Notes under the pieces: model-generated | The model's input: only the letters and a program-made list of their open reading frames with translations | What the model was told of the DNA's origin: nothing | The model's database searches: none | Shown here: positions 3,744-62,930 of the stretch, one piece after another | Layout: each line of letters starts with the position of its first letter | Numbering within the stretch: position 1 is the first letter of the stretch | Made by a program: the position numbers and the translations under genes | NCBI RefSeq assembly: GCF_964204645.1 | Contig: NC_134030.1 | Location: forward strand, 16,864,110-16,928,109 | Direction: 5' to 3' | Source of the DNA: Tubulanus polymorphus | Lineage: Eukaryota; Animalia; Nemertea | Length of the DNA: 64,000 nucleotides

Positions 3744-4269
3744 AAATGCATATGAACTTGCTCTATTAACAGAAAAAGAAGCATTTGAATATAGATGGAA
3801 CATAGGCGTTAATCTCCGAGGAGGATTAGGACACAACATCGCTAATGATAATCTCGTTGAAACTCAAGTTTAAAAAATGAAGCAGAAATTGCGTGATCAA
3901 GGAGCAAATGTAACATTAAAATCAGCAAAACTTGCATTTGAATCCTGCCAAATAATTGACGAAATTGTGCAAAGTTTCATTGGTTCACCGATAAAAGGTG
4001 GCTCAAAAGGTCCAGTATCTAAATTTAAGGATGTTTCATTGATGGTAAATGAACTAGTTGCAGCTGATGTATTCAAAGTGAATGATGAACGTGATATGGG
4101 TGTGTTCAATAACTTTAAGAGTCCAACGGAAAGAATAAAAATTTCAGAGTTGAAAATATGGTTAGGGGATCAGAAATGTAGAGCTAAAAGAGAAATGATT
4201 TGAATTCACCAAACTATCTTATCTTCGCGATAGGAGTGGCTTAAATCAATGTGTATTAGTCATGTGCAA

Positions 4270-6019
4270 TGGTGCTGCCTCGTCCATTCGCACCTGCCAG
4301 TATCCTGAAGCGAGATCCATGACAGCGAACCAACGATTACCGGAAAGGGACCGAATAGAATCATCGATACGAAGTAAGGGGTAATTATCAGAGAGTGTAG
4401 CCTCGTTTAAGGCGCGGTAATAAACGCAGAATCGAGTGCTGTCGTCTTTTTTGAGACGAGCACGATCGGGCTACTCCATGGACTGGGATTCCTCTATCAC
4501 TCCGCAATCGATCAAATCTTTCAAAATCTTGTCTACCTCAGCCTCCTTGTGTATCGAGAGGTGACGGAATCGCTGTTTGATAGGGGTCGTATCACCCACT
4601 TCAATTATGCGCTCGGCATCGACAGCCGCGCCCAAGTCGGTGTCGGACTTAGCGAATATATCTGAATACTCAATTAAGAGTTCACGAACTGGGCGGCTCT
4701 GATCCTCGTCTAATTCGGAGCAACTACAATTAACCAAATCGAGCAAGAACTCGGGTACCTGATTATCAGGCGGAGACTCTCACGGAACGGGAGTCTCATT
4801 GATAAGACGGAGTCGTGAGCTCGACATCTCCTCAGGCCAGACGCATTTAACATTATAAATCGTTGCGATGGCCGAGTTCTGAAGTTCGAGAAGTATGCTT
4901 GAATTCATAACGGAGACAGGTATGATATCTCGCGCGGTGTCGACCACGCATCTAGCGACACACAGATCTGGGCCCAGTCTCGGGTTGTTTATTGTTTTCA
5001 ACTAATGCCCATTTCATAAGGTCACTCTTATCTGACACGCTACACGGGACAACCACTTCTGTCAGAGCAGGGATGACCATTCGCTCATTACATCGGACTA
5101 AGTTTTTATTTTCGGACTCGCAGATTTGGTGCCGGCACTCAATTTGTGACCTTGACACACGAGAGTCTTCTGTTACGGGAAGATTTGACAGTCGCATGAC
5201 ATGAGGAAATCCATTATTTACAAACGGTAAGACATTTACTCGAGCATCGGATACATCCGAGTTTCTATTTCTAATTTTTACCTCTCGTAGTGGCGATTCA
5301 GGGAGATTGTTTCTATTCCCAACCAACCTTACTCCCTCGGTGGGGCTGGTCGACGGGAGTTTAAATCATCGGTTTGACGCGGAGGCTGACTACAATTGCG
5401 CGAAATATGACCAGGTTGCCCGATAGCACAAACGAGGTCCTGGAGCCCTACGGTCGGTCATACGAGACATCATCTGGCTCAGAAACTTCTTTTCTCAAGG
5501 ACGCGATTTCATTATTAGGTGTCTTCGACGAGACTATCTGCCTGACGTATGAGTCGGACCGCTCCTTCTCGCGTTCGATCAAGAATATCCCTTCGAGTCG
5601 AAGCGCATGTATCAATGTCTAACTGCCACAGCCGGAGTCTCATCTCAGCGTCGGGCAGTGCCTCGATAAAGTGTGAACGGGCAAGTCTCTCTCGCTTCAC
5701 CGGATCAAAATCGGGATACGCACGGGAGCAGAGAATTACAATGACTTGGCCCAGTTCCTTCAAACTTTCGTTGCGCTTGCGACGACGATTTCTCAACTCC
5801 GCCAAGTGGACTTCGGCTGACTTATTGAGGCCAAAGCGTGCCTCTAATACGTCGCACATGGCGTCATAATCGCGCATCTGGACCGGGGATAGTTTAACGC
5901 AGACTTACTGTCTTGCAGTCCCCCTTAGCTAAGCAAACAGAAAATCTGCCTTCATATCGTCCGGCCAACCTTTAAGGCGGCTCACGGTTTCGAAGCTCAA
6001 CCTGTAGTCCTGCCATGGA
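4270..6019 (-). mobile_element. Ty3/Gypsy LTR retrotransposon, 3' part (gag C-terminal half, degraded protease-region sequence, N-terminal RT); truncated
   Basis: Minus strand gives WQDYRLSFETVSRLKGW...LRGTAR, YDAMCDVLEARFG (gag) and PIKQRFRHL...SPIVLV...LNEATLSDNYPLLRIDD...FAVMDLASGYWQV (RT). Confidence 0.9.
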
Positions 6020-6113
6020 AGTAATTGGGAAAGTAGGCTTTCATACCAGAGGTCGAGCGGTCGAAACACCACTCATCACCACAAGTAATTTTTTTTCCTA
6101 ATAAATGGGGGAG
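6020..6113 (+). repeat. Polinton left TIR (appears internally collapsed)
   Basis: 6020-6089 pairs with 19428-19497; 6069-6113 pairs with ~19111-19154. Confidence 0.9.
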
Positions 6114-9100
6114 AATGAACACCAGCCAGAAAACAATAATGTTAATAAAAATCAATATTATTGCCAATATTGTAAAAAAATACATCGATAAATCCCAAAA
6201 ATCACGACATGAAAAAACTGCAAATCATATAAAAAATGTAATAGATTTTGAAACTCCAGAAAATCCCAATGAAAGAAAAGAAAGATTAGAAAATATGAAT
6301 GTGGATGAAATAAAATGTGAAGTTTGTAATGAATTTATAGTAAAAAGGAATTATAATAGACATCTCGAATCACAAAAACACCGCCAAAATTTGAGTAATA
6401 ATGTTTTAGGAAAATATTATTTTGATGATAAACCTCAACAAGTAAAAAAACCAACTTCAAAAACTAAATCCATTTCAAATAAACCTTACATGGAAAATGT
6501 TAGAAATTATATTGATTCACTAGAAATAAAAGATACAATTGAAATTTTAGAAACATTACATAGTAAAATTGGTCCAGCAGCTATTATATTTAGATTTTTT
6601 AAAGGAACAACAATAGAAGATTATAGTAAATTTAATGAAATAATAGAAAAAATACTAGATTTGATAACAGATGTTGAATATCCAAAAATTAGTATCTCTG
6701 GGAAAGTAAGTTTTATAAAGTCAGAAGAAAAAATGAATTATAATATTCAAACACACTCTGAAGAAATAATTTCAAAAACACAAATAAAAGAGAAGTTAGA
6801 AAAAATATTTAATGAAATTAAACGTCATATTGAAGAAAGATATTTTGAGGGTTCTGGCTTAACATTGAATGAAATTATATATTTAGATTTAAATGTTTAC
6901 AATACAAAAAGGAATAAAACATCAAAAAGTAATAAAATGTTTAAAAATGATTCAAACTTTACAACAGAAAAGGATATTAAAGCATCATCTTATATTAAAT
7001 TACCATTTACAACAAAAGCAGTAATAAATGTTCAAAATGAAGATAATAAATGTTTTCTATGGTCAATTATTAGTTGTTTACACCCAACAGAAGATATGAC
7101 GCATAGTTTTAGAATAACAAATTACCGGAAATATGAAACATTATATAAAATTGATCAATATCCAGTAACTATAAAAATGATTCCTAAAATAGAAAAAGTT
7201 AATAATTTAAAAATAAATGTATTTGAATTAATGCAATTACCAAAGACAAAAGGTGAAAATATTAAAGATTATACATTGGAAGCTTTATATTTAACAGCAT
7301 ATTATGATGATGAAAATGCTATAGATTTGTTATATTACAAAAAAGATGAAAATGAACATTATATGTGGTTAAAACAAATTGATTTATTCTTTAGAACAGA
7401 AAGTGATCACCATAATAAAATGTATCTATGTAGAAAATGTTTATCTTAATTTATGACTGAGAATACATTATTAAAACATAAAGAATTATGTGATAATAAA
7501 GATTTTTGCAAATTAATAATGCCAACAGAAAAAGATTATAAATTGAAATTTACTAATCATAAATTTAAAAATATTGTTCCATTTGTAATTTATGGGGATT
7601 TTGAATCGTTGAATAAAGAATTAACTGATCAAGATAGAAAAGAAATATATAACAAAAAGCAATTATTAAAATCAATGGATAAAGGAAATGAATGAAATGA
7701 AGACATAATACAAGACCCACCAATTATAAATACAATTAAAAAAGTTCATCAAAGAGCTGCTGCTTATGAAATTTATACAAAATCAAATTATCCTGAATTA
7801 TATGAAAGTCAATATATTTCTTTTAGAGGTGAAAATGTAGTTAATGATTTTTGTGATAAAATGATTGAATTAGAAAGTGATTTTGCAAAATTATTAAACA
7901 CAAATAAAAGAATAGTTATGACAAAAGAAGATGAAATTGATTTTAATTATGCAACTCATTGTTGTTATTGTGAAAAACGTTTTTATTCATTTGATAAAAA
8001 AGTTAGAGATCATGATCATTTAAATTCAAAATATCGTGGAGCTGCTCATGAAGATTGCAATTTACAAGCTAAGAAAGTTAATTTCGTACCAATATTATTT
8101 CATAATTTATCAGGCTATGATACCCATCTATTTATAAAACAATTATCGGGAAAATTGGGCGCAATAAATCAAGAAATAGAAGAATATAATGCTATGAATG
8201 GTGTAAATGTAAGAAAATATGATTTTAAATTATTAGCTTAAACATCTGAAAATTATATTTCATTTCAATTTGGTTGCATTAGATTTTTAGATTCTTATAG
8301 ATTTCTAGCAAGTTCATTAGATAATTTATCAGAATTTTAGTTGATAATGATTTTGTTATAACTCGATATTATTATCCAAATGAACAAGATTTTAAATTAT
8401 TGAGATATAAAGGCGCAATTCCTTATTCATTTTATAAAACACACAATGATTTTAATGTAACAGAATTATTAAAAGATCAATTTTATGATCAATTAAAAGA
8501 GGAGTATTTAGAAGTGTTTATGAGAACGAAGTGTTTAATAGAACATTAAATATTTGGAACCATTTTAAGATGAAAAATCATGGCGAATTAGTTGATTTAT
8601 ATTTAAAATCAGACGTTATGATATTGGCGGACATATTTGAAAAATTTAGAGAAGTTAATTTGAATCATTTTAATGTTGATCCTTGTTATTGCTACTCTAG
8701 TCCTGGTTTAACCTGGCAATGTGGTTTAAAATATACAAATGTAGAATTAGATTTATTAAAAGAACCAGGTATGGTTTTATTATTTGAAAAATCAATTAGA
8801 GGTGGAATTAGTGGTGTTATGGGAGATAGGTATTTTAAAGCAAATGATGAATATAAATTATTATATATTGACGCCAATAATTTATATGGTTGGGCAATGA
8901 TGCAACCTCAACCATATAAAAATTATATATTAACAGAAGTTGAAAATGATGATAAAACTAATTGGGAAAGCGCAATTATGAGTTTAGAAGATGAAGCACC
9001 AATTGGTTATTTCTTTGTAGTTGATTTAGAATATCCTGAAAATATTTTATTTATAATATAAGTTTAAAACAAGAAACTTACCTTATTGCCCGGAACATTT

Positions 9101-11194
9101 AACTGTAGATGATAGTTATTTAAGTGAATACCAGAAGAAAATAAAACCGAAAGATCATGTTTTTACAGAAAAATTAATACTTACTCAAAATAATAAATAC
9201 AATTATATTGTTCATTATAGAATGTTAAAATTTTATCTAAAACAAGGAATGAAATTAAAGAAAGTACATAGATATATTGAATTTAATCAATCGAAGTGGT
9301 TAGAAAAATATATAGATTTTAATACTCAACAGAGAACCATATCAAAAACAGATTTTGAAAAAGATTTCTCCAAATTAATGAACAATAGTTTTTATGGTAA
9401 AACATGTGAAAATATTAGAAATAGAAATGATATTGAATTAGTAAATAATTCTGAAAGATTAAGACATTTACAATCAAGTCCTAGACATTTAGGAAATAAA
9501 AGATTTGAAGATTATTTAACAGCAGTTAAATTAAAAAGAACGTCAATGAAATTTAATAAACCTATATTTATTGGTTCAACTGTTTTAGAAGTATCAAAAT
9601 TATTAATGTATGATTTTTATTATAATGTTTTACAACCACTTTTTGGGGAAAAGCATATTGAAATATTATATTTTGATTCTGTAACAGCTGACACCCCAAT
9701 ATTATTAAAATGTAATGATAAAATATTGATAAGAAGAATTTCAGAAATGATTCCAAAACAAAATGAATGTTATATTTCATATGGTGAAAAAGAATTAATA
9801 CAAATAAATGGTTTAATGGATGTTTGGACAAGAAATGGATGGAAAAAATTAAAGAATATTATTAGGCATAAAACAAATAAGAAAATCTATAGAGTTAGAA
9901 ATTAGGATTTGTAGATGTTACAGAAGATCATAGTTTAATTAAACGAAATGGTGATGAAATAAAACCAACTGATATAAAAATTGGAGATGAATTATTACAT
10001 AAAAGATTTTTCCAAAGAATGAATCATATGTCATTTGATGAAATTATTGATAATATTTATGATATAGAACCCGAAACATTAGAAGAAAAAGAATATTTTA
10101 TCAAAGGATTTTTCATGGGTGATGGTTAAGCAGGTGTGTATAATTATGTTTGGGGTAATAAATATTGTTGGTATTTATGCAATCAAGACTTAAAATTATT
10201 AGAAAGAATTAAGAAATTCTGTGAAGAAGTTTATTCACATAAAACATTTAGAATCATGGATCATATGAAATCATCAGCAGTTTATAGAATACTTGTAAAT
10301 AATCCTAAAGATTTTGCTATAAAATATAATGATGAATTCTATATTCATGCAATAGTGAAAAGTAATACTTCAACTAAAGAAAAGATAGTACCAGATTATG
10401 TATTAAATGCCAAAAATAATTTAAGAAAATGGTTCTTTATTGGATTCTACGCAGCAGATGGTGCTAAAAAATTTACAAAGGATATAAAGATAACCTTTGC
10501 ACAGAAAGGAAAAGTTGCTATATCAGGATTGAATATATTATGCAATTCATTAGGTTTTAATATGAATATTGGATTGATTAAATCTAAACCAAATTGCTTT
10601 AATTTAAGCCACACAGAAAAAGATTTAACTGAAGAAGTTAAAGATTTATTTGAAATATAAAACCCAACAGATTATGTTTATGATTTATCAACTGAAGATG
10701 GTACATTTAACTGTGGATTTCCATTAATAGCAGTCAATACGGATGCGTACATACTAAAAATCAAGACAAATGACATAACAAAAGACTTAAAAACATTAAA
10801 ACATCATTTTGATTTTAGCAATTATCCCAAAGATCATGAACTATTTAGCAATGATAATAAAATGATTCCTGGTAAGTTTAAAGATGAATTAGGGGGCGAT
10901 GAAATGATTGAATTTGTTGGGATAAGAAGTAAAATGTATAGTTACAGAACAAAAGATCATGAAGCTAAAAAGTTAAAAGGAATAACAAAACATGTGGTTG
11001 ATAAACATATAGAATTTCAAGATTATATAAAGTGTTTATATAACTCAATTGTAATGAAACATAAAATGAATTGTTTAAGATCAGAAGATCACGAGATGTA
11101 CATTAATGAAGTTGAAAAAACTAGTTTAAATCCATTTGATGATAAAAGACATATTTCAGATGATGGTATAAAAACATTACCTTATGGCCATTAA
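6105..11194 (+). pseudogene. polB: Protein-primed family B DNA polymerase with N-terminal zinc fingers, vOTU-like region, endonuclease VII-like insert and an intein
   Basis: ExoI VIYGDFES, ExoII FHNLSGYD, ExoIII YLKSDV, motif A YIDANNLYGWAM, motif B KLMNNSFYGK, split motif C YFD/TDA, GKFKDE, KMYS, KLKGI; CxxC...DHDHL...RGAAHEDCN insert; several stops and frameshifts. Confidence 0.96.
9678..10738 (+). mobile_element. Intein with LAGLIDADG homing endonuclease in pPolB motif C (degenerate)
   Basis: Block A SVTADTPILL directly after YFD; block B VDVTEDHSL; endonuclease motifs FIKGFFMGDG and FFIGFYAADGA; block F YVYDLSTEDGTF; terminal Asn (LIAVN) followed by +1 Thr (TDA); frameshift near 9900, stops at 10127 and 10658. 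Confidence 0.93.
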
Positions 11195-12420
11195 AACATA
11201 AAATCAATATCATCATACTCGAAATCACTATTGGCTTCTTCATTTTCATTTAATTGTTCTTGTATAATTTGTATAGGTTCTTCCATTTCATTTTTCTCAT
11301 TTAAATAAAGTTCTATCTTGTACCACATTTCATCTCGCTCTCTTTGTTTCTTTTGTTTGTTAATTCGTCAAATGGAATTATAATATCGATGTTTAAATAA
11401 TTTACAATCTTATTTAAAAAGAATTCATAATTAATTGAATCTGTTATTCTATTTTCCAAATGATACATTAATATTTGTTTGAATATTTTTTTTATATTTT
11501 CCATATCTTCTTCTGTTAATTTAGGTTTTTCATAATAATCGTTAAATAATAAATATAAATACATTTTCTTTTGTTTTGTGTTAAATGTTGACGGAATAAT
11601 TGTTTTTATAATATCTTTTTTAGTTATTTCACCATTTTTATTTTCATTTTTTCAAGCCATTGATATATTCTGGTGTATGATCTTCTATAGAAAATATTTT
11701 AAAAATTTCATCTAGATAATTTAATTTTGGATCTATGAGAAAATTTCTAGTTTTTTCTTCACCCCATAAATTCTTTTGCCATCCACAATCAACACAAAAT
11801 AACACAGTACCTTCTTGTCTTAAGGTCGCATAACTACATTGTGGACATTTTCGTTTATAATTTATTGGTAATAGATCTTCATTAAGCTCCTGGTATTTCC
11901 TTACGTTTTCTTTATGTTTTAATGTTCTATTATGTAGATTTGAATTACTTGTTGTAATAATCAATTTACAATAATATGTTTTTCTTGTTAATTCATTGTA
12001 TTGTTTTTCTAACTTTTCAACTGTTTCTTTATTATCTGGTAACATTTTCTCATATTTTATTTTTTCTAATAAACTATTTTTTTCTTTCATTGAATTCAGT
12101 TTCAAATTTATTAGAAATTTTATCTATATGTACTTTACGAAATTGATGATTCTCCCAATCTTCTATATTTTCAGGGCTGTATTTTATTCGACAAGGCTCA
12201 CAGAAATGATCTTTTATATTATCCTTATCATAGAATAAGAAAGGTCTTTTCCAAATAATTTCAGGTTCAACTTCAACAGAATTACTATTACTTTCATTAC
12301 TATCAACATTAGCCGTTGCGCCATTAATTTTACACTTCTCTGAATGTTTTTAACATAATTTCTTAAGAATAACTTATTACATTTTGGGCAGTTTAGTTTA
12401 GGGGGTTTATAATTGGAAAT
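11191..12420 (-). pseudogene. Poxvirus late transcription factor VLTF3/A2-like protein with extra N-terminal Cys/His motifs (frameshifted)
   Basis: CPQC-x13-CVDC, RNFLIDPKLNYLDEIF, LTEEDMENIKKIFKQIL...SINYEFFLNKI and a later DEMW follow, in order, the vaccinia A2 motifs as I recall them (CxxC..CxxC, KLIHL, EIFKHL, INYSFFLDKI, W); stop overlaps the polB stop in TTAA at 11191-11194; 5' end uncertain. Confidence 0.78.
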
Positions 12421-12449
12421 TTAAATACATCATTTGATACACAGAAACA

Positions 12450-12956
12450 ATTCAAAGTTTTATTTAAAGATTCAATTCATAATGATAAAAATAGATCGAT
12501 TCCAGAAAACATTGTATATCATTGTATAGATATCAAAATTATTTAGATAAATCTCATGTAAGACTAAATTATTGTATAGGCCCTAATCTATTAATTATTT
12601 CTAATGATTTAGTACTAAAGATCGGAAACATAATTGGTTACAATAATCTAATTAAAACTGCAACAATAAATAATTCATTTGGATTAAATGATATAAATAA
12701 AAAGATTACCGCTATAAAATTAATGGAAGGTGAAAAAAATAAAAAACATATTCAATCAACAGAAACTAAAACTTAGAATATTAAATTAAATAATGATTCT
12801 AAACCGGATTATAATACATCAGAAAATATTAAAACTGATAATATTCGACATGATATATTTAAAACTGATAATGATAATAAATCCCATGAAAATACTAAAT
12901 TAGCTTTAACTTGTATAGGAATTGTTATAGGAGGAATATTATATTTTAAATTTTAA
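12450..12956 (+). pseudogene. C-terminal half of a conserved Polinton hypothetical protein; 5' part missing
   Basis: YRYQNYLDKSHVRLNYCIGPNLLIISNDLVLKIGNIIGYNNLI followed by a C-terminal hydrophobic tail LALTCIGIVIGGILYF; no start motif upstream. Confidence 0.5.
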
Positions 12957-12972
12957 TTTTTTTATTATATAA

Positions 12973-14386
12973 ATGGATGTAGAAGGTGGAGAAGATATTG
13001 GAATGGATAATTTTGATGAACCTGGCATAACTGATGAACAACAACCTGATTTTAGTGAAACAAGTTATAATGGTGGTAATGAGCCAGGATATAATAAATT
13101 TTAATATGCCTGATTATATTAAAATGCAGAATCACAATTAAATCCTGAAAACTTAGATCCAGATTTAGTAAAACAAGATTTATATAATTTAAACAAAATA
13201 GAGAAATTAGAATATATAATTGAAAATTCGAAACTTAACGTAAATGATGAAGACGTTGGACCTTTAGCAGATAAATTAATTAGATAATGGTAAATGTTAT
13301 TATCGTTTGAAAGGTGATTATCATATTTATATCACTAATCAAAGGACAAAACTAAAAAAATATTAGCGGAATCAACTTTGAAAAATTTAGAAACATTTAG
13401 AATTAAGAGAATAAGTAATAGTAATGAAATAACTGATGTTACACAAAAAGAAATAGATGATAATATAGACGTATTTAAACAAAGAATTAATGAATTATTT
13501 GAAATAATCAAAAAGAAATCAGAAACAGAAACAACTTCTGAACAGAATATAACTTCCAAAACTAGTAAACTTAAATCAAATAAAGTTTCAATTGAAAAAC
13601 TTTTACCGAATGGATTAATTGATGCAACAGATCAAGAATTAGAAGATTTAAATAATATATTTTCTGTTGAAGCAATTAGAGAAATTAAAAGTATAAGACT
13701 TGCATCTGATTAAATTGCGCATGATAAAAGTATGAGATTTTAAAATTAGAACTTTAGAAAAAGAATTAACTGATAAAAATAAAGAAATAGAACAATTAAA
13801 GTCTGTTTTAGATCATCAAGTAATTGATGAAATAGAATATAGGCAAAAAGAATTACGATTAGAATAAGAAATTAATAATTTAAAAGATAATTTAGAAGTA
13901 CAGAAAGAAGAAATTAAATTGTTATTAAAATCATATGATTATAATATTAATAGATTAAAATTTATTTTTAAAGATTTGTTGATAAAACCAAATTCTGAAA
14001 TATCATTGAGAGATAGAATAAAGTTATTATTTAAATTAGAAGGAATAACAATTCTTTCAATTCTAACAGCTGTAACTATGTTATTTACAACAATAGGTTT
14101 AGCAATATCAAATGCTTTGAAATCTACTCCTACTCCCAATAAACCAGATAAACCCCCAGATAATAATTCTATACAAGATGGTTTAAAGAAATTAGCAAAA
14201 TATTTACGGGAACTATCTAAAAAATCTGCTGCAGCTTTACCAGGAATTATTGCATCAATTGTTGGTTTTATATTGAAATCTGCAGGAAACATTATTAACT
14301 TTGCTGCTGAACATATTATTTTATTTTTAATTACAGTTGTAAGTGCTATTATTTTTGGGTTAGTGAATATGATAAAAAATAAATAA
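12973..14386 (+). pseudogene. Polinton coiled-coil protein with C-terminal hydrophobic/amphipathic helices (putative membrane-associated protein)
   Basis: ATG in the ATAAATGG motif; ORF pieces 13378-13713 and 13919-14386 with ITILSILTAVTMLFTTIGLAI and AAAALPGIIASIVGFIL. Confidence 0.65.
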
Positions 14387-14406
14387 TTAATTTTTTTGTT
14401 AAATAA

Positions 14407-15655
14407 ATGGGTGGGAGTGATATAAGTCCTCCTAAGATTTCTAGAATATCTAATGCTATTAAAGCAGAAAGATCACATCATATAATTACACATAATCCTT
14501 CAAATATTAATCCCGATGAAACTTTATATGTTAGAATTCCTAGATTAACACAAAATACTTTTTTATGTTCCAAATAGTATTTATTTATCAGCTGATATAA
14601 AAGTAACTGGTCATGATAATAATTATGTTGTTGATAATGTTGGGAGATATTTGATTAAAAAATTGACTATAAAGATTGGTCCAGAAACAGTTTTCTCATT
14701 AGATGATTATAATTTATTTATGCATTATAAAGATTTATGGTTAACTAAAGAAAATAGAAATAATATGATATTTCAGGGTATTCAATCGGATAACCATAAT
14801 AAATTAAGATCAGGAGCTAATGACGCAATAGTAACTCGTGCCACAGATAATTTGATTAAAAAGATTTATGGAAGCAAATATAAAATTCCATTAGACTTTG
14901 AATTGATAAATAATAATGCACCTTTATATAAATATGTAATTCAAGAAGATATTATATTTGAGATAACATTTGCTCCTGTAAATGAAATTGTATTATCTAG
15001 CGTTGTTAAAGATATGGGTTATAAATTATCAAATATATGTTTAGAATATGACACAGTAACTAATGAAAATATTGCTACCACAATTCAAACTCAATACAAT
15101 CAAGGATTTTCATTATTATATGATTATATTGATAAATTTAAAACTGTAACTATTAATGCAAATCATGAAATAATTAATGAGAATATTAACTTCCCAAGAA
15201 GATCTATTAAAGGTATATTAATATTTTTTACCATTGCAACATATTCTAATGGCGCAATAAAGGTAGATAATTATTATAATCCTGAAATAACAAAAGTAGA
15301 AATAACTATCGAAGGAATAGCAAATAAAATATTTTGTCAAGGAATGAGAATGATAGATCAATGGCCAGAAATTAGAAAACATTTTATGAATGAAAAAGTA
15401 AAATCATTTGAAAATTGTAATATTAATCAAATTGATTATTATACCGGCAATAAATATGCATTATGGTTAGATTTTAGAACAACAGAGGATAATTCATTAC
15501 ATGGTTCTGGGAAAAAACTACAGAACACTAAAGATGGAATACAATTATTTATGAAAAAGAAAAAAGGAAGCTTAAATTTTAAAATGCACATTTATATTAT
15601 ATCTGACGCACAATTAAATATTGTAAATTCACAATTAGATAGTATTCAATATTAG
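14407..15655 (+). pseudogene. Putative major capsid protein (one frameshift near 14560)
   Basis: About 415 codons when joined; HNPSNINPDETLYVRIP, VDNVGRYLIKKLTIKIG, LSNICLEYD, YALWLDFRT; size, apparent beta-rich pattern and position next to INT/ATPase fit a double jelly-roll MCP. Confidence 0.7.
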
Positions 15656-15685
15656 AAATATAAAGTTAAAATTAACGATATATAA

Positions 15686-16809
15686 ATGGGCGGTAAAAAA
15701 ACTCCTAATACTAAAGAACAATATTTAAGAAATTTATATTACAACCCTGAGAGTTCGGTTGCTTATTCTTCTACCAAAAATATATGGCGTCAAGTAAAAC
15801 AAGATAAATTAGATAAGATAATCCCACAAAATTTAGTTAAATATAAAGATATAAATGAATTTATGTTAGAACAACCAACATACACAACGCATAAAAAAAT
15901 TGTTAGAAAATATAAAACTCGTAAAACTATGGTAAGTTATGTAGATCAACAGTGGCAAGGAGATTTAATTGATATGAAAAAAGAAAGATAATAATGATTA
16001 TTGGTGGTTATTGAATATAATTGAAATTTTTAGTCGTTATGTATGGAGTTTCCCACTTTATAGAAAAGATGCTGTACAAACATCAAATGTTTTAAGAAAA
16101 TTTCTTTCGGATGATAAACTAAAACCAGAAAAAAATACAATTTGATGATGGGAAGGAGTTTGATAATTCACTTGTTCGTGAACTCTTAGATAATCATAAT
16201 ATTAAATATTTTTCAACAAAATCGGATAAAAAAGCAGCAGTTGTTGAACGATTTAATAGAACATTAAGAACAAGAATGTGGAAATATTTTACAGCAAATA
16301 ATACTTTTAAATGGATTGATGTTTTACCAAAATTGATAGAAGGATATAAAAATTCTTATCATTCTTCTATTTGAATGAAACCTATTGATGCTAGAAAACC
16401 TGAAAATGCTGAAATTGTTTGGAATAATTTATATGGAGCATTTCTTGTAGATGATTTTGGTGAACCTAAATTTAAAGTTGGTCAAAATGTTAGAATTTCT
16501 AAGTATAAAAAGATATTTGATAAAGGATACGATCGAAATTTTACTAGAGAAATATATAAAATAAAAAAGGTTATAACAACAAAACCATATGTCTATAAAT
16601 TAGAAGATTTAGATAGTGAAGAAGTTGATGGCTACTTTTACGAAGAAGAATTGAGTTTAACTACTGAAAATCTAGAACAAGAATATAAAATTGAAAAAGT
16701 AGTAAAAACAAAAACTATTAAAAGAAAAAAATATTCTTTAGTAAAATGGGTTGGATGGCCAGATAAATTCAATGAATGGATATTATCAAGTAAAATTAAA
16801 AATATATAA
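15686..16809 (+). pseudogene. Retroviral-type (rve) integrase with C-terminal chromodomain
   Basis: QWQGDLIDM, DDGKEF and KAAVVERFNRT (DDE triad); YKIEKV...LVKWVGWPDKFNEWI chromodomain; frameshifts and a stop. Confidence 0.93.
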
Positions 16810-17417
16810 ATGTATAAGGAATTATTTATATTTGAGCCTCATAATATGTTAATTTCTGGCGTAACAAATTGTGGAAAACTTATTTTATATTAAATTTATT
16901 AGAAACTGTTTATGAAAACTATTTTGATAATAAAGTATAATTTTGTCCAACATATGAATTTAATCCAACTCATGATAGAAATATTACTAGAAATAATAAA
17001 TTGATTATATTAGATCCTAAAACAGTAAAAGAAAATTTAGATAATTGTATAAAGATAGCAATTGATATTTATAAAGGATCAAATACATTATTCATTATAG
17101 ATGATTGTGCTAATCTACATGATTCAAAAGTTAGAGAGAGTGAGTTATGCTATTTAGCTTTTTCTGGCAGACATTCTCGGATAACAACTTGGGTTTTAAA
17201 TCAAAAATATAATTCAATTGTTAAAGACTTTAGAGAAAACATTAGATTTCTAGTTTTATTCTACAATAAAGATAGAAAATCGATGAAAAATGCACTTGAG
17301 GAAAATGATATTATTCCACATGATTTACATAATGAATATATGGATAAGTTGAAAAATATTAAAAGATCAAAATTACTATTTAGATTACAACACCCATTTA
17401 AATATGAATTTATTTAA
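16810..17417 (+). pseudogene. A32/FtsK-like genome packaging ATPase
   Basis: Walker A GVTNCGK(T), Walker B LFIIDD, SGRH and LNQ motifs; frameshifted after Walker A. Confidence 0.88.
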
Positions 17418-17419
17418 AT

Positions 17420-17695
17420 TCAACTAGCTCGTTAATCTAGTTGAATTCTAGTTACATTCTAGTTGAATTCTAGTTATTGGTAGTTGGAACAAAAATCAAC
17501 TAGATTTAACAATATTTTAACTAGCTTGTTAATCTAGTTTAATTCTAGTTACATTCTAGTTGAATTCTAGTTATTGGTAGTTGGAACAAAAATCAACTAG
17601 ATTTAACAAGAAATAAACAAAAACAACAATATTTCAACTAGCTTGTTAATCTAGTTGAATTCTAGTTACATTCTAGTTGAATTCTGGTTGCAACA
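17420..17695. repeat. Palindrome-rich tandem repeat (~2.6 copies of a ~100-117-bp unit) inside the Polinton
   Basis: CAACTAGCTTGTTAATCTAGTTGAATTCTAGTTACATTCTAGTTGAATTCT repeated at ~17421, ~17518 and ~17635. Confidence 0.9.
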
Positions 17696-17721
17696 TCACA
17701 ACTAATTTTTTTGTTATATAA

Positions 17722-18327
17722 ATGGTAGGTGAAAAGAAAATAAAATCTAAAAATGGTGATGTTCCAATTGAAAAAACTTTAGATGATTTAGGAATAACAG
17801 AAAACAAATTAATTCCAGATGATGGCGCTTTAAATAATGTTACAACAAATAATAATTATGAATATTATCTTTATTGTAAACATCAATTAGAAATATTAAT
17901 AGCATCTGGAAAATGTAAAAATTTTGTCGGTAAAAATTTCACTTATAATGAATTAGATACAATGAAATCAGATGAAATTATTAGATTATTTAAGATTTAT
18001 GAAGCCGCGAGAACAGCTAGAATTAATGACGCGATATCAGAAAATGTAGTAAAAGGTTATAGTAAATTATGTAATTATATACTACCAATTGAAGATGAAA
18101 ATAGATTATATTCCTTTTTAAAAAATGACTATTTAGTTATGACTGAATTACATAAATGGATTGGATATTTATCATTTCAATTAGGTGGATCTATGACATT
18201 ATTATCAACTGGAGTTTTAACATTTTCAAATATTGAAAGTAAAAATATTTCTATAATAAATGAACAAGGTGGAAGAAGTGAAGGAATTAAATGTGAAGAA
18301 AAAACCGAGATCACAGAAACAAATTGA
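17722..18327 (+). CDS. Polinton hypothetical protein (201 aa)
   Basis: Open ORF starting at the shared AATTTTTTT-N5-ATAAATGG motif. Confidence 0.65.
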   Translation: MVGEKKIKSKNGDVPIEKTLDDLGITENKLIPDDGALNNVTTNNNYEYYLYCKHQLEILIASGKCKNFVGKNFTYNELDTMKSDEIIRLFKIYEAARTARINDAISENVVKGYSKLCNYILPIEDENRLYSFLKNDYLVMTELHKWIGYLSFQLGGSMTLLSTGVLTFSNIESKNISIINEQGGRSEGIKCEEKTEITETN

Positions 18328-18628
18328 ATGGTCTCGGCAATTAGGAATTAAATCACAAGAATATAAAAAAGCTGTAAAAGAAAAAATAAGTAGTAAAAAT
18401 GTTAATAAAAATAGTGAAAATATTGTTATTTCTACTCCTTCTAATGATAGAATATTTGATAAATGTCTATATTTTACAGTTGGATTTGTAATTGTATTCA
18501 TTTTGATTGGGTGTAATTGGTATAAGAAATCAAATAAAATTCATGATATTAATAATTCTGAAACAACTGCTATCAAAAATGAAAATACTTCTGAAATTCC
18601 AAAATTGACAATAAAAAAAATGGATTAA
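18260..18628 (+). CDS. Polinton small protein with one predicted TM helix
   Basis: ATAAATG start; hydrophobic CLYFTVGFVIVFILIGCNW segment. Confidence 0.6.
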   Translation: MNKVEEVKELNVKKKPRSQKQIEWSRQLGIKSQEYKKAVKEKISSKNVNKNSENIVISTPSNDRIFDKCLYFTVGFVIVFILIGCNWYKKSNKIHDINNSETTAIKNENTSEIPKLTIKKMD

Positions 18629-18759
18629 TATTTTAGAAAAAAAAAGCAAAAAAATAATTTTTTTAAATTAATTGAATATTAATTGAATATCCCTCTACTT
18701 TTGTCTATCTATGCGGAGCAATTAAATTGTCCAGATAAGTCATTTCGGATTCTAGATAT

Positions 18760-19118
18760 TCATTATTTTTATTAATTTATTTTTTTAAATTTAATCAACA
18801 ATTTCTAAATCATGATGGCCATCTTCATTTTTTCCATGATAGATTATTTTAAAGCCTTCTAAATCTTTTAATTCCTCTGTACTCAATGAAACCCATTTAT
18901 CAGGTAAAAATACTTAAAATTCTCGCGATGTACTAACATTACAGTAGCTTAAATTAGCTGATACTTTCTCTCCATATTTAGTTTTTATCTTTTCTAATTT
19001 CAATATTTTATGTTCAATTTCTTTTGTAACATCAACTAACTTTTTTATTTCAAATTGTTTTTTTTGCTGGTTTTATTCTGTTATTTATTGTTGCTAAGAA
19101 TGCTTTTCTATCTCCCAT
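18760..19118 (-). pseudogene. Degraded small Polinton ORF(s) initiating at the right-end repeat
   Basis: Minus-strand ATAAATGG starts at 19118 and 18896; broken reading frames. Confidence 0.35.
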
Positions 19119-19497
19119 TTATAAGGAAAACAAATTACTTGTGGTGATGAGTGGGGATTACTTCCCCCTGTATATAACAAACACGCTATTAACCGTTCTC
19201 ACCCAAGCCTCACAGCATCTATTTATCTGGGCACAGTTGACACGCAATCACTGTACTACAGTAATAGCACACGCGTTAATAACCGTTCTCAGTAGAGACT
19301 CACTGTATCGATCTATCCACGCGCAGCTGTTGTTACGCGCACTCACTGTATATGTGTACCACAGAGCAATCGTCCGTTCTCACTAGAGCCTAGCTGTGAT
19401 GAGTGGTGTCTCATACTCAATTGATTTATTACTTGTGGTGATGAGTGGTGTCTCGACTGCTCGACCTCTGGTATGAAAGCCTACTTTCCCAATTACT
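19111..19497 (-). repeat. Polinton right TIR/subterminal region with internal direct repeats
   Basis: GTGATGAGTGG three times (~19144, ~19396, ~19438), CCGTTCTCA three times, CACTGTA three times; ends AATTACT then TSD. Confidence 0.85.
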
Positions 19498-19895
19498 CAT
19501 GGACCATCGCCCGAAAAACTTTCAGGTTTTATATTGCAGGTCGCAAAGTTACGACTTGGTGCAATTGGAATCGGCGTGCCCTTACGAGGAATATCGCGAC
19601 GATCTCTCAATGGAGACATCTCATTTCGGGGCATATTCAAATCTTCAGTACTATGGCTACGCGGACCAAGCGAAGGCGAAGAGGCACGAGTTATCGGACG
19701 GCTCATCTTAACGGATTTTCTTACGCAAAAACTATGAGATAAAGACGGACTATTATAAACCCTATACTCATTCGACAACGTGTAATCGACTTAAACTAAT
19801 TCGTCATGTGATGTTTCTGGGTATTTGATCCGAAACCGAGGCATCCAACCACAAAAAAGAATACATCGCAATAGCCGAGAGGATTATGATAAATC
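19498..19895 (-). mobile_element. Gypsy element 5' part: leader and gag N-terminus, continuous with the sequence ending at 6019 once the Polinton is removed
   Basis: ORF ends NIKPESFSGDGP and joins through the CATGGA TSD to WQDYRLSFETV. Confidence 0.9.
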
Positions 19896-23832: not shown

Positions 23833-24348
23833 TTAACGAGGCCCTCTTTCAAAATTCAGCTTCGTAATCCATAATTCGTTTTCAATTTTCTTCACGTGAC
23901 CCTCGTAATTTCTCCAATTTTCTGCCGTGACTTGTTTTCTCCCTTCAATGATTAACTTTTTCACATCTCTCAGTTTATTTGTAGTGTTTCTTTTCTTAGC
24001 GTATGCTTTCATCTGGTGCCAAGCCATTTCAATGGGGTTGAGCTCGCAATGTCTGACTGGTAATGTCAGTAACTCGTGTCCAGAATCGAGAATCAGCTGC
24101 TCTGATTTGTAAACTTTATTCGGTAATTGAGTTTGACATAGTTTTACAAGTTGTTGTTTGTTTAAATTTTGGTCGTATATCATTTTTGGTTTACCTTTGT
24201 CAGCAGTATGAGGTTGGCATTGAGCCAATTCATGTAAAATCGCGGTACGTTTTTTTATGTGAGCATTTGCTTCATTGGTTCTCGGCCTAAACGACGTATA
24301 ATCGATGCGATTGAAGACATGGCGAACCTCCGTTGATGACATGGTCAA
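23833..24348 (-). pseudogene. Tc1/IS630-like (DDE_3) transposase C-terminal fragment
   Basis: LLTLPVRHCELNPIEMAWHQMKAY...VTAENWRNYEGHV. Confidence 0.8.
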
Positions 24349-25434
24349 CTGAGTTAAATTTCTACGAATAACTGTTTTTGGCGGGAAAATTCTTAGCTCT
24401 TGCGTATAAAATTACAATGACCTCGATTGGGGGCGTCGTCTCTATACAAATGTGATTGGCTGTTTGTGGGATATACGGGGAATTCCAGCGCTACTAAAAT
24501 AATTATGGGAAACGTTAATGGCAAACGTTTCATTGGACTGGTGCCGTATATGTGCGAATTTTAAATGCTCATTGCTGGTGAGAATATAATTATTTCACAT
24601 ATCGCCATAGGTATTGTTTCATTTTGATACCCGGTGATTGAGATTGAAGTGAAGCAAACGTTCACTACACAAGGCCTCCACGTGCACAAGAGTGCTGAAC
24701 ATTAGACTGTTGCGCACACTAACACACGCTCATACATAATACTATATGGTGATGCTGTAACGCTGCTTGGCGCGTGCACGTTTGGTATGATAATCGTCGT
24801 AGCAGAAGATGAGCGTTGTGTTTTCTGGTTGATAGAATTTGTGATAAATTGTAATTTCTTGTGACCTGAAAATACTAAGCAGCAAACTATAGCTGTATAG
24901 GTCGAGGTCTGAATAGTGTAGTGGTAAATTCCAGGTTTTAAAACGATCTAATACTACGCCCCGGTGTTATAGCTTCCGCGGCCATACATTGGAAGAGGTT
25001 TCGTTCCCAAGACTCAATATTCAGCCACCCTCTGATATGTGACATCATATGAATTTTATTTGAATATTTTTTCATATTGTGAAAAATATTTTTTTGAAAA
25101 TATGAAATAGTTTCCCTGCCGCGCCTGCCTGTACCCTACGGAATTTTGGACGTAGACCATAAACAAATGTTTATCTTTGGTCTTATTTGACTACAAAATA
25201 ATTTTTTAAAGGGTTAGTGACACATTTTCGCAATAAGTTAAAATTTTACCATTTTTAGGCAGAAATATGTTTAAACTTGTCATCTTAGTCGAAAAAACTG
25301 TTTTGCAACTCTGCCAGTTAAAATAAAAACGCATTTTAAAACATCCGGTAGTGTTGTTGTTTTCATACAAGCACGTGCTTAGGTCGTGACGTCACGTCGT
25401 GAAAACAAAGAATGTAAACAATAGACTATTCACA

Positions 25435-45739: not shown

Positions 45740-48600
45740 GTATAGTGACCATCGCCCAATCAAGCAACAACCGAGGCGTTTACCACCGGGTCATAGTAAG
45801 TTTTTCGAGTGTCATACTGCCAAATTACATAGTCACGGCCTCATCCGACCATCACAATCCCCCTGGGCCAGTCCCATCGTCTTGGCCAAGAAGTCCGATG
45901 GTAGCCTTAGGCTGTGTTGTGATTATCGGAAGTTAAACGACGCTACGATAAAGGACAGCCATCAGGTGGGACGAACTGACTCCACTCTTGAGGCTCTTTC
46001 GGGGTCGTCATGGTTCTCCTCTCTTTACCTCACAAGTGGGTACCATCAGGTGCCTATACAGGAGATGGATAAACCAAAGCATTCTGCACATAAAATCGAT
46101 TGTGGGAGTGGAACGTCATGGCGTTTGGCCTAACTAAAGCCCCTGCCTGTTTTTCTCGGCTTATGACTATGGCCCTGGATAAGGTTTCATGGAAAACTGC
46201 GTTGATATATCTCGATGATGTCATTGTTCACTCAGCTGATGTTGCGTTACACATCAGTAAACTCGCTGAGGTGTTTTCATGTTTCCGATCCGCAAACCTT
46301 AAACTGAAACCGAGAAAATGTCTCCTACTGCGGAGACGGTTGAAGTTTTTGGGCATCATTGTTAGTGGGAATGGTATGGAGGCTGACCCGTCCAAAGTTG
46401 AGAAAATTATGAACTGGCCTGTTCCAACCACGGTTTCAGAGGTCCGCAGGTTCACAGGGTTAGTGACCTATTATTCAAAGTGTATTGAGGGGTATTCCCA
46501 AATGTGTCGTCCCCTACACCAACTTACTAAAAAGGGCCATGTTTTTGTATGGGGAATGGAGCAACAGCAAGCATTTGACGCCATAAAGATGGCACTTATT
46601 TGCCTTCCTGTTTTGGCCTTCCCTGATTTCGAGACAGGTGCAGGCAAATTTATTATCCACTGTGACGCTAGTGACAGGGCAAGTGGTGCCGTACTTACGT
46701 GTAGGCAGACTCGTCCAAACGGGTGATCGCGTATTCTGGTCGCACATTACGGGGTGGTGAAGAGAATTACTGTGCCACCAGGCGAGAGATGCTTGCCCTA
46801 GTCGATATGATTGAACACTTCCGGCATTACCTGTTGGGCCTGAAATTTTTGGTGCGTACTGACCATGCAGCACTTAAATCCGGTCTTCAAACATTCAGTC
46901 TGGACAAGTTGCCCGCTGGAATGAACGGTTGACCGACTATAACTTTGATATTGAACACCTGCCCGGGCGTATCCACTTAAATGCGGATGCGCGGTTACAG
47001 GACGAGGACGCCGACATATCGATAGTTAAGGACTTAGTTTTCATCGACAACAGGTTAAACCTAGTGCCGATGTTATGCGTAAGTTTAGCACGAAAACCAG
47101 AGTGTTTCTTGGTGAATATGAGCAACTTGTTATTGACAAGGCCGTTTTATGTTTGAGACCTGCCCCTGGATCCAGCCTTTAAAACCACGTGTCGTTCTGT
47201 CTTACGTGTTACTGCCTAAGGCTTTGTCACACCTTCATGACGGTATCTCAGGACAGAACGCACTAAGACAGAACGGAAGATGCGCGAACGATTTTGGTCC
47301 CCTGGCATTACTAGAGCTGTGCACGAGTACATCCAACAGTGCCAGAAATGTCAACAGTGCAAAAATCCACCCTAGCGACCGAAGGCACCTTTGGTGTCGA
47401 CACCAGTTGGTCCTAGAGGGCAGAGGTTGCACGTTGATATAGTGGGCCCCCTACAGTGTATTAAACGTGACAACACATACGTTATTGTTGTCCAGGACGC
47501 TTAAACTAAGTGGGTGGAGGCATGGCCAGTACGGAATGAAAAGGCCCCCACTGTGGCTCGAAAAGTTGTGGACGAATGAGTGACGAGGTATGGCTGCCCA
47601 GAAAGCATTCACTCCGACCGAGGAGCCAACTTTGAGTCCAAGGTTTTGGCAGAAGTTTGTCGACTGTTGGGTATCGATAAGACAGGTACCACCTCGTATC
47701 ACCCAATGGGAAATGGTCAGGTGGAAAACTTAAGTAAATCAATCAAGGCCAAGCTGACCATATCCGTGAACGAAACCGGCACTGACTGGGATACGAAGCT
47801 GTCATCTTGCCTGATGGCATTCCGTTCTAGTGTTCAGGAGTCCACTGGCGAGATCCCTTTTTACCTGACCTTTGGTTCAGAGATGGTCTTTCCTCTGGAT
47901 ATCATGGTTGGACCACCCGAAGAACCAGTGTACAATATTAAGTTTAGCCGTGATGTACACGCCAACCTACAGGAGGCGCACCGTAGGGTTAGGGAGAGAC
48001 TGGGTAAGGCTCAGCGGCGTCAGACTACTAATTACGATAGATTTGCTAGGCGGGGTGGGCATAACGTTGGTGATAGGGTATGGCTCAATAGTCATGCCAT
48101 TAAGTCAGGGGAGGCTGCCAAATTTCATAAGAAGTGGAAGGCCCTTCATTATGATCGAAAAGCTGTCTGAGGTGACGTATCAGGTCAGACCGGAGGGTGG
48201 TCCCCGAAAGCCAAAGGCCGTCCACTTTAATGATATGAAGCCAGCGTTTGGCAAGCCCCCTACCAACGTTAACAAGGCTTTCCCTGTCAGAACGAATAAA
48301 AGAACAGTAGAGCCCCATCCAGCCCATGAGAGTGAAAGTTCAAGCTCTTCAGGGAGCGATGATGGGGAGATTGTCTGGTGGCGCCCCAACGACCGGATTG
48401 TTGCAGCACCTACAAATGACGCTACACCAATCGAAGCAGAGGCAGAAGTCGATCCCCCAGCGAGTCAGCCTGTGGAAAATGCCCAGCCGCATCCACCGGC
48501 CGACAACGCAGATCAATTTTGTCGTTTGCGTCCGAGGAGAGCATTGAAACAGCCAGCCCGATTCAGTGACTTAGTTCGTCATTGCTCGATGACCCAGAAT
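45740..48600 (+). pseudogene. pol: Gypsy pol (RT-RNaseH-integrase), frameshifted
   Basis: ORF pieces 45693-46133, 46100-46726, 46723-46932, 47580-48170 and 47872-48768 carry successive pol motifs. Confidence 0.92.
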
Positions 48601-48726
48601 CCGGGAGAAGAAAGACCTGTGGCTGAAGAAAGGGCGAAAATTGCTGCGAGACAGAAAACACCTCACCGGTTAAACTCTCTGCTCTCCAGCCAACTTAACG
48701 TTTTTCTCTGTTTTTTAGCTACCAAA

Positions 48727-61100: not shown

Positions 61101-61495
61101 GCGACCCTTCCCGACTCTTCGAATCGAGCCTTTCCTTCGAGCAACTTTAGAATGGCTGTGCCGCGCGGAGCGTGCCCGACCGAACGAGCACTCTGATTCA
61201 ACCCTTTCAACTGCCTCCAACTCGGCCTGCGCACAAGCCAGTTCCTTTTCGAGGGAGAGCCGTCGTAATCCTTCTTCTTCGTGGAGTCGCTTTAGCTTTC
61301 TTCTCCGACTCTAAATTTAAGGACTTAAGTTCGACTTCATGTCTAGCAGCCTTTGCTGCTATCCTGCTTCTAAGTTTACTGGACGACTGCGTGGACGCGA
61401 CACTCATGTCATCGACTGCTTTCGATCGTATCTCTGCCGCGCTAGCGAGGGCTTCCAGTCCATCCATCTTACTGTCGGGACTCGGTCCAATGGAG

Positions 61496-61863
61496 TGACT
61501 GGCGGTGGTTATTTATTTAAACATATTGATAAAAATGGATCATTAACAGAACAAAAAAGACATAACTTAGCATTAGAAAAATTCAATAAAGCAGCAGAAG
61601 AATATAGTGAAAAGAGGCAAAACTATATGGATTATATTAACAAGGAATTATATGATCAGAAGATTTCACATAGAGATTTTCAATCAGTTGATGATGCAAT
61701 GAGTTTATATAACGCGGTAACCAATAAAGAAAAATTACATCTATACAAACCTAAATTATCAGATTATTATACCCCAAGTAAAGAACAACAGAAATATGAA
61801 ATAATATGGATTTTAGGTGGAACTGTTATTGTTATATTTGTAGCATATAGATTTACTAATTAG
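61496..61863 (+). pseudogene. 5'-truncated Polinton protein with C-terminal TM helix
   Basis: EQKRHNLALEKF...PKLSDYYTPSKEQQKYEIIWILGGTVIVIFVAY. Confidence 0.55.
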
Positions 61864-61882
61864 TAATTTTTTTGCTAAATAA

Positions 61883-62310
61883 ATGGATGATAATATTGAT
61901 ATTATTCCTCATGATATAAATAAAACTAAATTAAAAACATATTTAGAAAAACAAATATTAGAATTTGAAAGTTACTTAAAGATAAAAAAGAAAAAATTAT
62001 TAAAATCTAAAATTATATATTATTTTATTATCAGTGGTTCGGTTACAATTAGTTCTGTAATAACATTTCTAGCAATATTCAGTCCATTAACACCTTTAGC
62101 TATATCAATTGGTGTATTAGGATTATCATCAAGTGTATTAACTGGTATAAGTTCAAAATTAAATATAAAAAGTAATAAAGATAAAAATTAAAACTAATAT
62201 AAAAGAAATTAATAAATTAAAGAATACACTAGATTATATAATCAGTTTAAATGGTCATATAACAGTTGAAGAAAAAGATAAATTATTAAAAGAATTAATA
62301 AATTATTGAT
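61883..62310 (+). pseudogene. Polinton two-TM small protein (frameshift near 62190)
   Basis: Hydrophobic hairpin IIYYFIISGSVTISSVITFLAIFSPLTPLAISIGVLGLSSSVLTGI. Confidence 0.55.
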
Positions 62311-62325
62311 TTTTTAATTATATAA

Positions 62326-62930
62326 ATGGTAGATAGTTTTCCAAAAGCTTTCCAATATAATAAATCAATTAAATATAATATTCCAGCAATAGATTTTAAT
62401 AAAGATATTTCATATAGAAATGAAGTTTTAAATTCATTAATTGATTTATATATTTATGTTACTGAAACTAATTATTTTAATGTTAAGATGGAAAATATGT
62501 TTCATGTGTATACAATTAATTTTAAAAATTTAAATGAGGCAAATGGTTATTAAAATCTAATATGAAGTATTGGCAGAACCAATTAAATTTTGCTGTTTAT
62601 TGCGCAACAACAGGATGTGGAATTAGTTGGAATGATCATTTAAACAAACCAAGTTTACCATTGATGTTATCACTTTTTAGATTTCATACATATTTTCAAG
62701 TAAAATTAATATTAGATGAATTAGAATGTCCTTTACCAGGTTCAAAATATTTTAAAGAATTGAATAATAATATTAATTTTTCTAAGTTTTATAAAATATG
62801 TAATGAATTTAATATTAATTCAAATAAATATTCAAATAATTAATTCAAAAATTGGAACAATGGGTGGATTAGGAATATTATATACTAAAGAATTTGGAAA
62901 AAAAAGTCCTCCCAAATTACATTCAACTTG
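62326..62930 (+). pseudogene. N-terminal half of a conserved Polinton hypothetical protein
   Basis: YWQNQLNFAVYCATTGCGIS...FRFHTYFQ..IL.EL..PLP; in-frame stops. Confidence 0.55.

Follow-up and report, generated by a model that had tools for sequence, protein, structure and literature searches.

The analyzed window, a stretch of 64,000 nucleotides (nt) from the genome of the nemertean Tubulanus polymorphus (contig NC_134030.1, positions 16,864,110 to 16,928,109), contains between positions 6020 and 19497 a decayed and internally deleted Polinton, the dead copy of an integrating virus (Table 1). The element begins with AG, ends with CT, and is bounded by terminal inverted repeats (TIRs; 70 nt, 97% identity) and by the target-site duplication (TSD) CATGGA, 6 bp long, on both sides. 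Its G+C content is 22-26%; the preceding 6 kb have 31-49%, and the following 4 kb have 41-49%. The recognizable genes of this element and of its closest relatives share one start signal, TAAATG, embedded in a context of the poxvirus late type, and this signal is the main subject of the analysis.

Comparison of 30 frame pieces of the element with Pfam identified the protein-primed DNA polymerase pPolB (DNA_pol_B_2, PF03175, E 1.5e-7), an A32-like ATPase (E 2e-7), and a chromodomain (E 1e-4), together with a weak match to the rve integrase domain (E 0.016). The integrase is intact in the related locus L001 (rve E 1.5e-10), which is 68-79% identical to the window pieces. The capsid piece is a double jelly roll: its predicted structure (pLDDT, the predicted local distance difference test, 86 on a 63-row alignment) matches the capsids of PBCV-1 (Paramecium bursaria chlorella virus 1) and iridoviruses at E 3e-14, with those of Mavirus and Sputnik behind them at ranks 39-43. 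Stops or frameshifts interrupt every core gene, and pPolB with its intein falls into nine pieces. Comparison with L001 also shows an internal deletion at about 12409-12414, which took the 5' end and the promoter of a VLTF3-like gene and fused this gene to the 3' third of another one. The original prediction of a TIR- and TSD-bounded element with core Polinton genes (pPolB, integrase, ATPase, and a capsid-like gene) is borne out by these data, and its claim that no RNA polymerase gene can be recognized holds for the 30 pieces of this incomplete copy and for L001. An adenovirus-type cysteine protease was found neither in the 30 window pieces (Pfam) nor in L001, both of them incomplete; candidates for the minor capsid (penton) protein had no Pfam or NCBIfam match in a window copy that carries a deletion, and no Rfam family was found within the element. 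All these gene absences hold for the pieces scanned.

In the window, TAAATG is found at all eight recognizable 5' ends (6105, 12973, 14407, 15686, 16810, 17722, 18260, and, on the minus strand, 19118), the pPolB start at 6105 being assigned by position alone and lying out of frame with the first long piece. The start of the VLTF3-like gene cannot be scored in this copy, its promoter being deleted. The element shows no bulk excess of the hexanucleotide, which occurs 24 times on the plus strand and 14 times on the minus strand versus 16-21 and 11-18 occurrences expected under Markov models; 24 of the 332 plus-strand ATGs are preceded in this way. Two more TAAATG starts are contributed by a second fragment of the same family elsewhere in the window.

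Relatives of the element were represented by the best-scoring 80 of 369 confirmed metagenome loci (capsid alignment) and by six strays from genome contigs. The capsid tree has 28 rows and includes only unnamed loci; its far clade is thinned to every third row, and L030 (near-identical to L029) and L012 (no full open reading frame, ORF) are left out. In this tree the window element and ten loci form one clade with support 99/98. In these ten loci and L012, TAAATG stands at 28 of the 28 distinct starts of eight conserved gene families, with a background of 6.8% of 1807 ATGs in the same 11 loci; the corresponding counts are 0/10 in the sister clade and 5/127 in the far clade. All these counts are filtered by family and length, de-duplicated, and made without L030 and L084-L086. 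When the family filter is removed, the signal opens 46 of the 52 ORFs of at least 100 amino acids (aa) in the clade; antisense ORFs, internal starts, and two integrase genes are among the exceptions. It is present at 3/4 starts in L005, a locus of 44% G+C with a background of 2.2%, and absent from L010, a locus of 30% G+C. The fixed start motif originally proposed for the window is therefore a property of the whole clade, where it reflects one evolutionary origin kept by selection and not 28 independent events.

The surroundings of the signal are also constrained. Across 49 TAAATG starts, hardly any base other than A or T is found from -18 to -11, with T at a frequency of 0.88 at -12; this core is followed by a mixed spacer of about 6 nt, A is found at -4 in 80% of the starts, and G follows the ATG in 73%. 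TTTT occurs within -26 to -9 at 18/28 starts versus a background of 17.5%. There are five divergent gene pairs with an ATG-to-ATG gap of 19-30 nt and TAAATG at each start. TTTTTNT, the poxvirus early stop signal, is depleted in the coding strands of the clade (7 versus 17.0 expected, reached in 1/200 shuffles) and not in the far clade (14 versus 11.0). AATAAA occurs 68 times in the clade versus 79 expected (ratio 0.86, 7/200 shuffles), and the far clade shows no avoidance either; a test of splice-donor avoidance gave no discrimination. According to parts of PMC5294985 and PMC12722222, vaccinia late promoters consist of TAAAT(G/A) and an A/T core that precedes it by about 5-7 nt, and slippage produces poly(A) leaders. 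The A/T core with T residues, the 5-7-nt spacer, and the TAAAT(G/A) overlapping the start codon (PMC5294985) are all shared by the element at the sequence level.

Table 1. Features of the Polinton at 6020-19497 and of a related fragment in the same window (window coordinates).
Feature	Positions	Strand	Remark
Left TSD CATGGA	6014-6019		Flank match
Left TIR	6020-6089		70 nt, 97% with 19428-19497
Sub-terminal repeat with T-run and TAAATG	6069-6112	+	44 nt, 93%; inverted counterpart at 19111-19154
pPolB gene, TAAATG at apparent start, nine frame pieces including intein	6105-11194	+	PF03175, E 1.5e-7
Broken intein of the pol-c allele, inserted in the YxD|TD catalytic motif and containing a LAGLIDADG domain	9678-10738	+	
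Zinc-finger and VLTF3-like gene, five pieces, lacking its 5' end and promoter through an internal deletion	11191-12414	-	
3' third of conserved Polinton gene of unknown function (family 2)	12409-12956	+	
Broken gene conserved in Polintons (family 1), function unknown, TAAATG start	12973-14386	+	
Double-jelly-roll major capsid protein gene, TAAATG start, two pieces	14407-15655	+	
Retroviral-type integrase with chromodomain, TAAATG start, four pieces	15686-16809	+	
A32-like packaging ATPase, TAAATG start (its TAA is also the integrase stop), broken	16810-17417	+	
Conserved 201-aa ORF of unknown function, TAAATG start, open	17722-18327	+	
122-aa ORF with hydrophobic stretch, TAAATG start within upstream ORF	18260-18628	+	
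5' part of small conserved ORF, TAAATG start, broken	18917-19118	-	
Right TIR	19428-19497		Pairs with 6020-6089
Right TSD CATGGA	19498-19503		Flank match
Second, decayed fragment from this family, carrying genes that the main copy lost by deletion; TAAATG starts, 61880 and 62323	61492-62901	+	

The VLTF3-like gene is a more difficult case. The Pfam family VLTF3 (PF04947) matches 11316-11651 with E 0.015 and 15.5 bits, below the cut-off of 25, and in Pfam scans it is matched neither by the read-through of the gene nor by three intact relatives. VLTF3 clusters constitute 29 of the 30 Atlas matches at a score of 0.93, with low recognition, and no Atlas match of the zinc-ribbon part reached 0.9. 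A single-sequence fold of the piece is poor (pLDDT 45.7), and its Foldseek ranks are a lead only: VLTF3 proteins take the first, third, and fourth places, headed by a Megaviridae VLTF3, with none at E 0.001. Homolog searches with the VLTF3-like pieces found none, and PDB searches gave no VLTF3 match. A profile of seven viral VLTF3s, on the other hand, places the window piece first among 1261 sequences (E 0.008), and profile-profile alignment by hhalign (86%, E 4.8e-6) spans 185 columns, covering zinc ribbon and helical domain along the length; the score of 50 can be compared with 14 for the reversed sequence and at most 19 in 30 shuffles. As judged from these alignments, the gene is a real but distant VLTF3 homolog. 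The similarity of the 11191-12420 product to VLTF3, which the original prediction had chosen as its own test, is thus found, if narrowly; a gene does lie there, but it ends near 12414, with its 5' end deleted and fused. Intact relatives of the protein are 281-697 aa long, and two of them have extra N-terminal zinc fingers of the C2H2 type. In L001 the gene opens with TAAATG and stands back to back, at a distance of 72 nt, with a deoxynucleoside kinase gene (10343-10981, minus strand; PF01712, E 2e-31) that has a TAAATG start as well. The presence of VLTF3 in a polintovirus subgroup, seen in stony corals, is already on record in passages of PMC11131425, which cite Krupovic and Koonin (2016).

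The polymerase intein of the original prediction was confirmed at 9678-10738. It sits in YFD|TD and has Ser as its first and Asn as its last residue, with Thr next. Both a Hint and a LAGLIDADG domain are present; the LAGLIDADG_3 match is above the cut-off and that to TIGR01445 (E 7e-5) just under it. It is matched by each of the 77 inteins taken from 120 viral loci, a set gathered from viral contigs by one motif, with archaeal inteins outside the comparison. The best match, in L090 (a giant-virus bin), has 45% and 38% identity over two pieces (E 1e-47), and three of the four best inteins come from labelled giant-virus bins and share the GFPLI..N ending motif; identity to giant-virus PolB inteins is 36-45%. 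The intein tree is unresolved and places the window intein without support. PDB searches gave no intein match, and a viral-contig scan with an intein piece found no relative. A related intein at the same motif (28%, E 3e-12) is seen in a PolB gene of a 484-kb uncultured phage record (L088, 2737-4602). The insertion site is empty in L028, L070, L081, and the clade member L005; its absence from L005 marks the intein as a later gain. Read depth over the intein is 21 times that of the flank, compared with 28 times beside it, so that most copies in this genome carry it. As described in parts of PMC549080, the mimivirus PolB intein of the pol-c allele has the same YxD|TD site, Ser and Asn ends, and Thr at +1, along with a similar length of about 350 aa and a LAGLIDADG domain; in contrast to it, the window intein is broken and resides in the protein-primed PolB of an integrated element. 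An intein origin has been suggested for the nuclease inserts seen in pPolBs of Polintons (passages of PMC11161782), and our literature search found no report of a full pol-c intein in a Polinton pPolB. By its insertion site and its matches, the window intein is a pol-c allele, closest among the viral inteins compared to those of giant viruses and not of poxviruses. It points to contact with giant viruses rather than with poxviruses.

Sequencing reads indicate that the element is repeated in the host genome. In raw DNA reads (12% of one run), its median depth exceeds that of the flank at 4000-5963 about 34-fold (range 12-87), a rough estimate, since this flank may itself be repetitive. The 353 reads that run out of the left end into mixed sequence (agreement 0.36) imply many insertion sites, and reads are mostly 1-10% divergent from the window copy. 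In the marine metagenome X5, a small share of reads matches in short scattered pieces, which mostly continue into unlike DNA. A capsid 56% identical to that of the window is found on short contigs of several Bartonella assemblies (the P0008 cluster), which are probably carried-along host DNA; L081-L086 are similar strays in prokaryote bins.

A natural explanation of the start signal is that the active form of the clade depended, as virophages do, on a co-infecting large DNA virus, whose RNA polymerase transcribed its genes, and on balance we favor it. The helper is most likely pox-like in its transcription, and a true poxvirus is a possible candidate, albeit with somewhat less than an even chance. 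The promoter speaks for a pox-like polymerase, and the intein for an earlier encounter with a giant virus of a different kind. Under such a scheme, the active element would enter or awaken in a host cell in whose cytoplasm a large DNA virus, the helper, replicates. Transcription of all genes by the helper polymerase would begin simultaneously inside TAAAT and yield mRNA with a poly(A) head, and the VLTF3-like protein may act as an adaptor that recruits or diverts this polymerase. The pPolB, capsid, and ATPase of the element would then make particles, and its integrase new chromosomal copies; the intein could have been acquired while the element shared a cell with a giant virus. A broader version, in which this widespread integrating clade of marine, probably animal, genomes comprises endogenous virophages of poxviruses that divert the poxvirus polymerase with a late factor of their own, and the sister clade with its TATA initiator just before the ATG those of asfarviruses, is tentative and rather doubtful. 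In that case, the start motifs of Polintons would reveal the unknown large viruses to which each host is exposed, and integrated copies might provide an inherited antiviral defence.

Several observations weigh against transcription by a helper. No transcript, start site, or helper virus has been seen, and the scheme offers no route by which a provirus in the nucleus would come into contact with a polymerase in the cytoplasm. The 11 loci constitute a single clade, hence one origin of the signal rather than 28 independent events, and poxviruses are not alone in using TAAATG, which also stands at the start of 19 of 157 genes (12%) from viral control loci. The AATAAA test does not separate nuclear from cytoplasmic transcription, the clade being mildly depleted too. 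VLTF3 is not diagnostic, since a VLTF3-like protein is encoded (E 6e-4) in the sister-clade locus L029, which lacks TAAATG; VLTF3 is also present in mriyaviruses, which have no RNA polymerase and are thought to be nuclear (parts of PMC11253617). For both reasons its presence says little about where transcription happens, and it occurs independently of the motif. In structure the VLTF3-like piece, from a poor model, comes closest to a Megaviridae protein, and the best matches of the intein are giant-virus bins and not poxviruses. Finally, the polintoviruses of corals, whichever clade and promoter type they have, express their genes in colonies for which passages of PMC11131425 mention no helper. 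The proposal of expression by a poxvirus-like or other nucleocytoplasmic large DNA virus has thus gained on the side of the promoter (a clade-wide motif, its core and spacer, and its persistence at 44% G+C) and lost on the sides of VLTF3, which does not follow the motif, and of the intein, which resembles those of giant viruses.

Among the alternatives, TAAATG could be a feature of translation (stop-start coupling or start context) or an artefact of low G+C. The integrase stop does abut the ATPase start in the window and in L001, and the element is itself poor in G+C, but an upstream stop abuts only 1/45 starts, with 14 starts scored as divergent (one of these 14 rows faces a spurious ORF), the bulk excess is missing, and the motif is kept in L005 and absent from L010 against the trend of their composition; this explanation is largely refuted and very improbable. 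A Kozak context was rejected on finding a purine at -3 in 0/28 starts versus 109/127 in the far clade. The signal is not an RNA polymerase II TATA box, because capsid N-termini are conserved from that very ATG, and an upstream poly(A) signal was rejected with AATAAATG at only 19/49 starts.

The main rival is autonomy in the nucleus, where a host RNA polymerase would read a compact, element-specific promoter with the help of the element's own VLTF3-like protein, the poxvirus likeness being inherited or convergent. The retention of VLTF3 in RNA-polymerase-less viruses thought to be nuclear (parts of PMC11253617) agrees with it. The several extra C2H2 fingers of intact relatives could bind DNA alone, the element integrates and is multi-copy, and neighbouring clades have start-proximal motifs of their own. 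However, a T at -3 is a poor context for scanning ribosomes under the Kozak rule, unless it lies outside the mRNA, and it is found in 28/28 starts; divergent ATGs are merely 19-30 nt apart, and coding strands contain 2.6 AATAAA per kb, with 23 in the 5.1-kb pPolB of the window. We regard nuclear autonomy as unlikely. Within the proposal of a helper, the latter might not be pox-like but a mimivirus-type or other giant virus with a TAAATG-like late promoter, as the identities of the intein, the Megaviridae protein at the top of the Foldseek ranks, and the deoxynucleoside kinase of L001, whose sole viral-contig match is 37% identical, might suggest. Yet the genomes with the nearest inteins use TAAATG at 1/10 scored starts, the late motifs of mimivirus, Cafeteria roenbergensis virus, and African swine fever virus (ASFV) are described as different in the parts of the literature covered, and the intein is a later gain; such a helper seems quite unlikely. 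The promoters could also be the relic of a helper-dependent ancestor, in a family that has since spread as a nuclear transposon only. The window copy is dead and reads are mostly 1-10% divergent from it, as this would predict, but the motif is kept at almost every gene in members that are 50-75% identical in the capsid and have open genes, which implies continued selection and leaves the relic a slim chance.

Scans of viral contigs with the capsid and with the ATPase of a related locus found no relative. One candidate for a TAAATG-using helper, G001, was rejected when its 3/3 starts fell to 3/10 with more DNA, one of the three being an antisense ORF. Other clades have signals of their own. In the sister clade (L029, L010, and L043), TATA lies at most 14 nt from the ATG in 7/10 starts, with a background of 7.6%, often after a T-run, and resembles the late initiator of ASFV; L029 additionally encodes a Bcl-2 protein (E 2e-18). 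In the far clade, TATA is that close in 50/127 starts versus a 4.4% background, and many capsid starts, for example in L013-L060, are preceded by the palindromic TTTCAATTGAAA and then TATA about 20 nt ahead; TTTCAATTGAAA has only a loose likeness to the giant-virus early motif AAAATTGA. Three large ORFs with TAAATG starts (L003, 2287-3117; L006, 2461-3684; L007, 1669-2355) have no Pfam or NCBIfam match. In the window element, short CTAG-rich repeated units, non-coding and duplicated at about 110-150 nt, fill roughly 17420-17700, between the ATPase and the next gene. The window also includes remnants of long terminal repeat retrotransposons and a DDE transposase (46094-48765, 58518-61070, and 23836-24411), and, by visual inspection, a Gag-like remnant without a Pfam match is interrupted by the element.

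To the extent covered by our literature search, a poxvirus-late-type promoter across a Polinton clade is new, and VLTF3 in Polintons and poxvirus-associated Polinton-like viruses (PLVs) are already known. No paper on poxvirus-type promoters in Polintons was found in a search that left most subscription literature and supplements uncovered. The gene expression and helper need of Polintons in multicellular hosts are an open question, no virions having been observed (parts of 10.64898/2026.06.19.733378). If transcription by a helper virus is correct, the virophage lifestyle extends from protists to integrated elements of larger hosts, and undiscovered pox-like viruses are predicted in these hosts. 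The 30-nt promoter common to the whole clade makes the helper question directly testable, and the intein would be an independent record of co-residence with a large DNA virus.

In its TIRs, 6-bp TSD, pPolB, rve integrase, A32 ATPase, double-jelly-roll capsid, and many chromosomal copies, the element agrees with known Polintons, or Mavericks (Polintoviricetes, "adintoviruses"; passages of PMC8502044), and in its VLTF3-like gene with their coral subgroup (passages of PMC11131425). It differs from them in the clade-wide start signal, in the pol-c intein, and, as far as incomplete copies can tell, in having no cysteine protease, the adenovirus-type enzyme of Group 1 Maverick-Polintons; the terms "promoter" and "intein" do not occur in passages of PMC8502044 and PMC11131425. 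The entomopoxvirus-associated PLVs (Barth et al., 2024; parts of PMC11296320) are likewise small Polinton-like elements and have been proposed to be poxvirus parasites. They come from poxvirus occlusion bodies and possess a cysteine protease gene, and no integrase is detectable in the two members with PolB, whereas the window element has an rve integrase and the promoter signal, with no protease found and no known helper; "promoter," "VLTF," and "intein" are not in the main text of PMC11296320. Helper-matched promoters are known from a transpoviron and from protist virophages, where they mark helper dependence, in the portions of the literature covered. The closest parallel in lifestyle would be Mavirus and the endogenous mavirus-like elements (EMALEs) of Cafeteria, the Halocafeteria virophages, and the Tetraselmis PLVs, which are integrated, have promoters matching the late promoter of the helper, and are reactivated by it, as described in the same portions. 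Their hosts are protists, their helpers of the mimivirid type, and their motifs others, and dependence is experimental there and inferred here. The virophage-like trait of the present clade is one late-type promoter motif at most of its genes, including every scored start of the conserved families.

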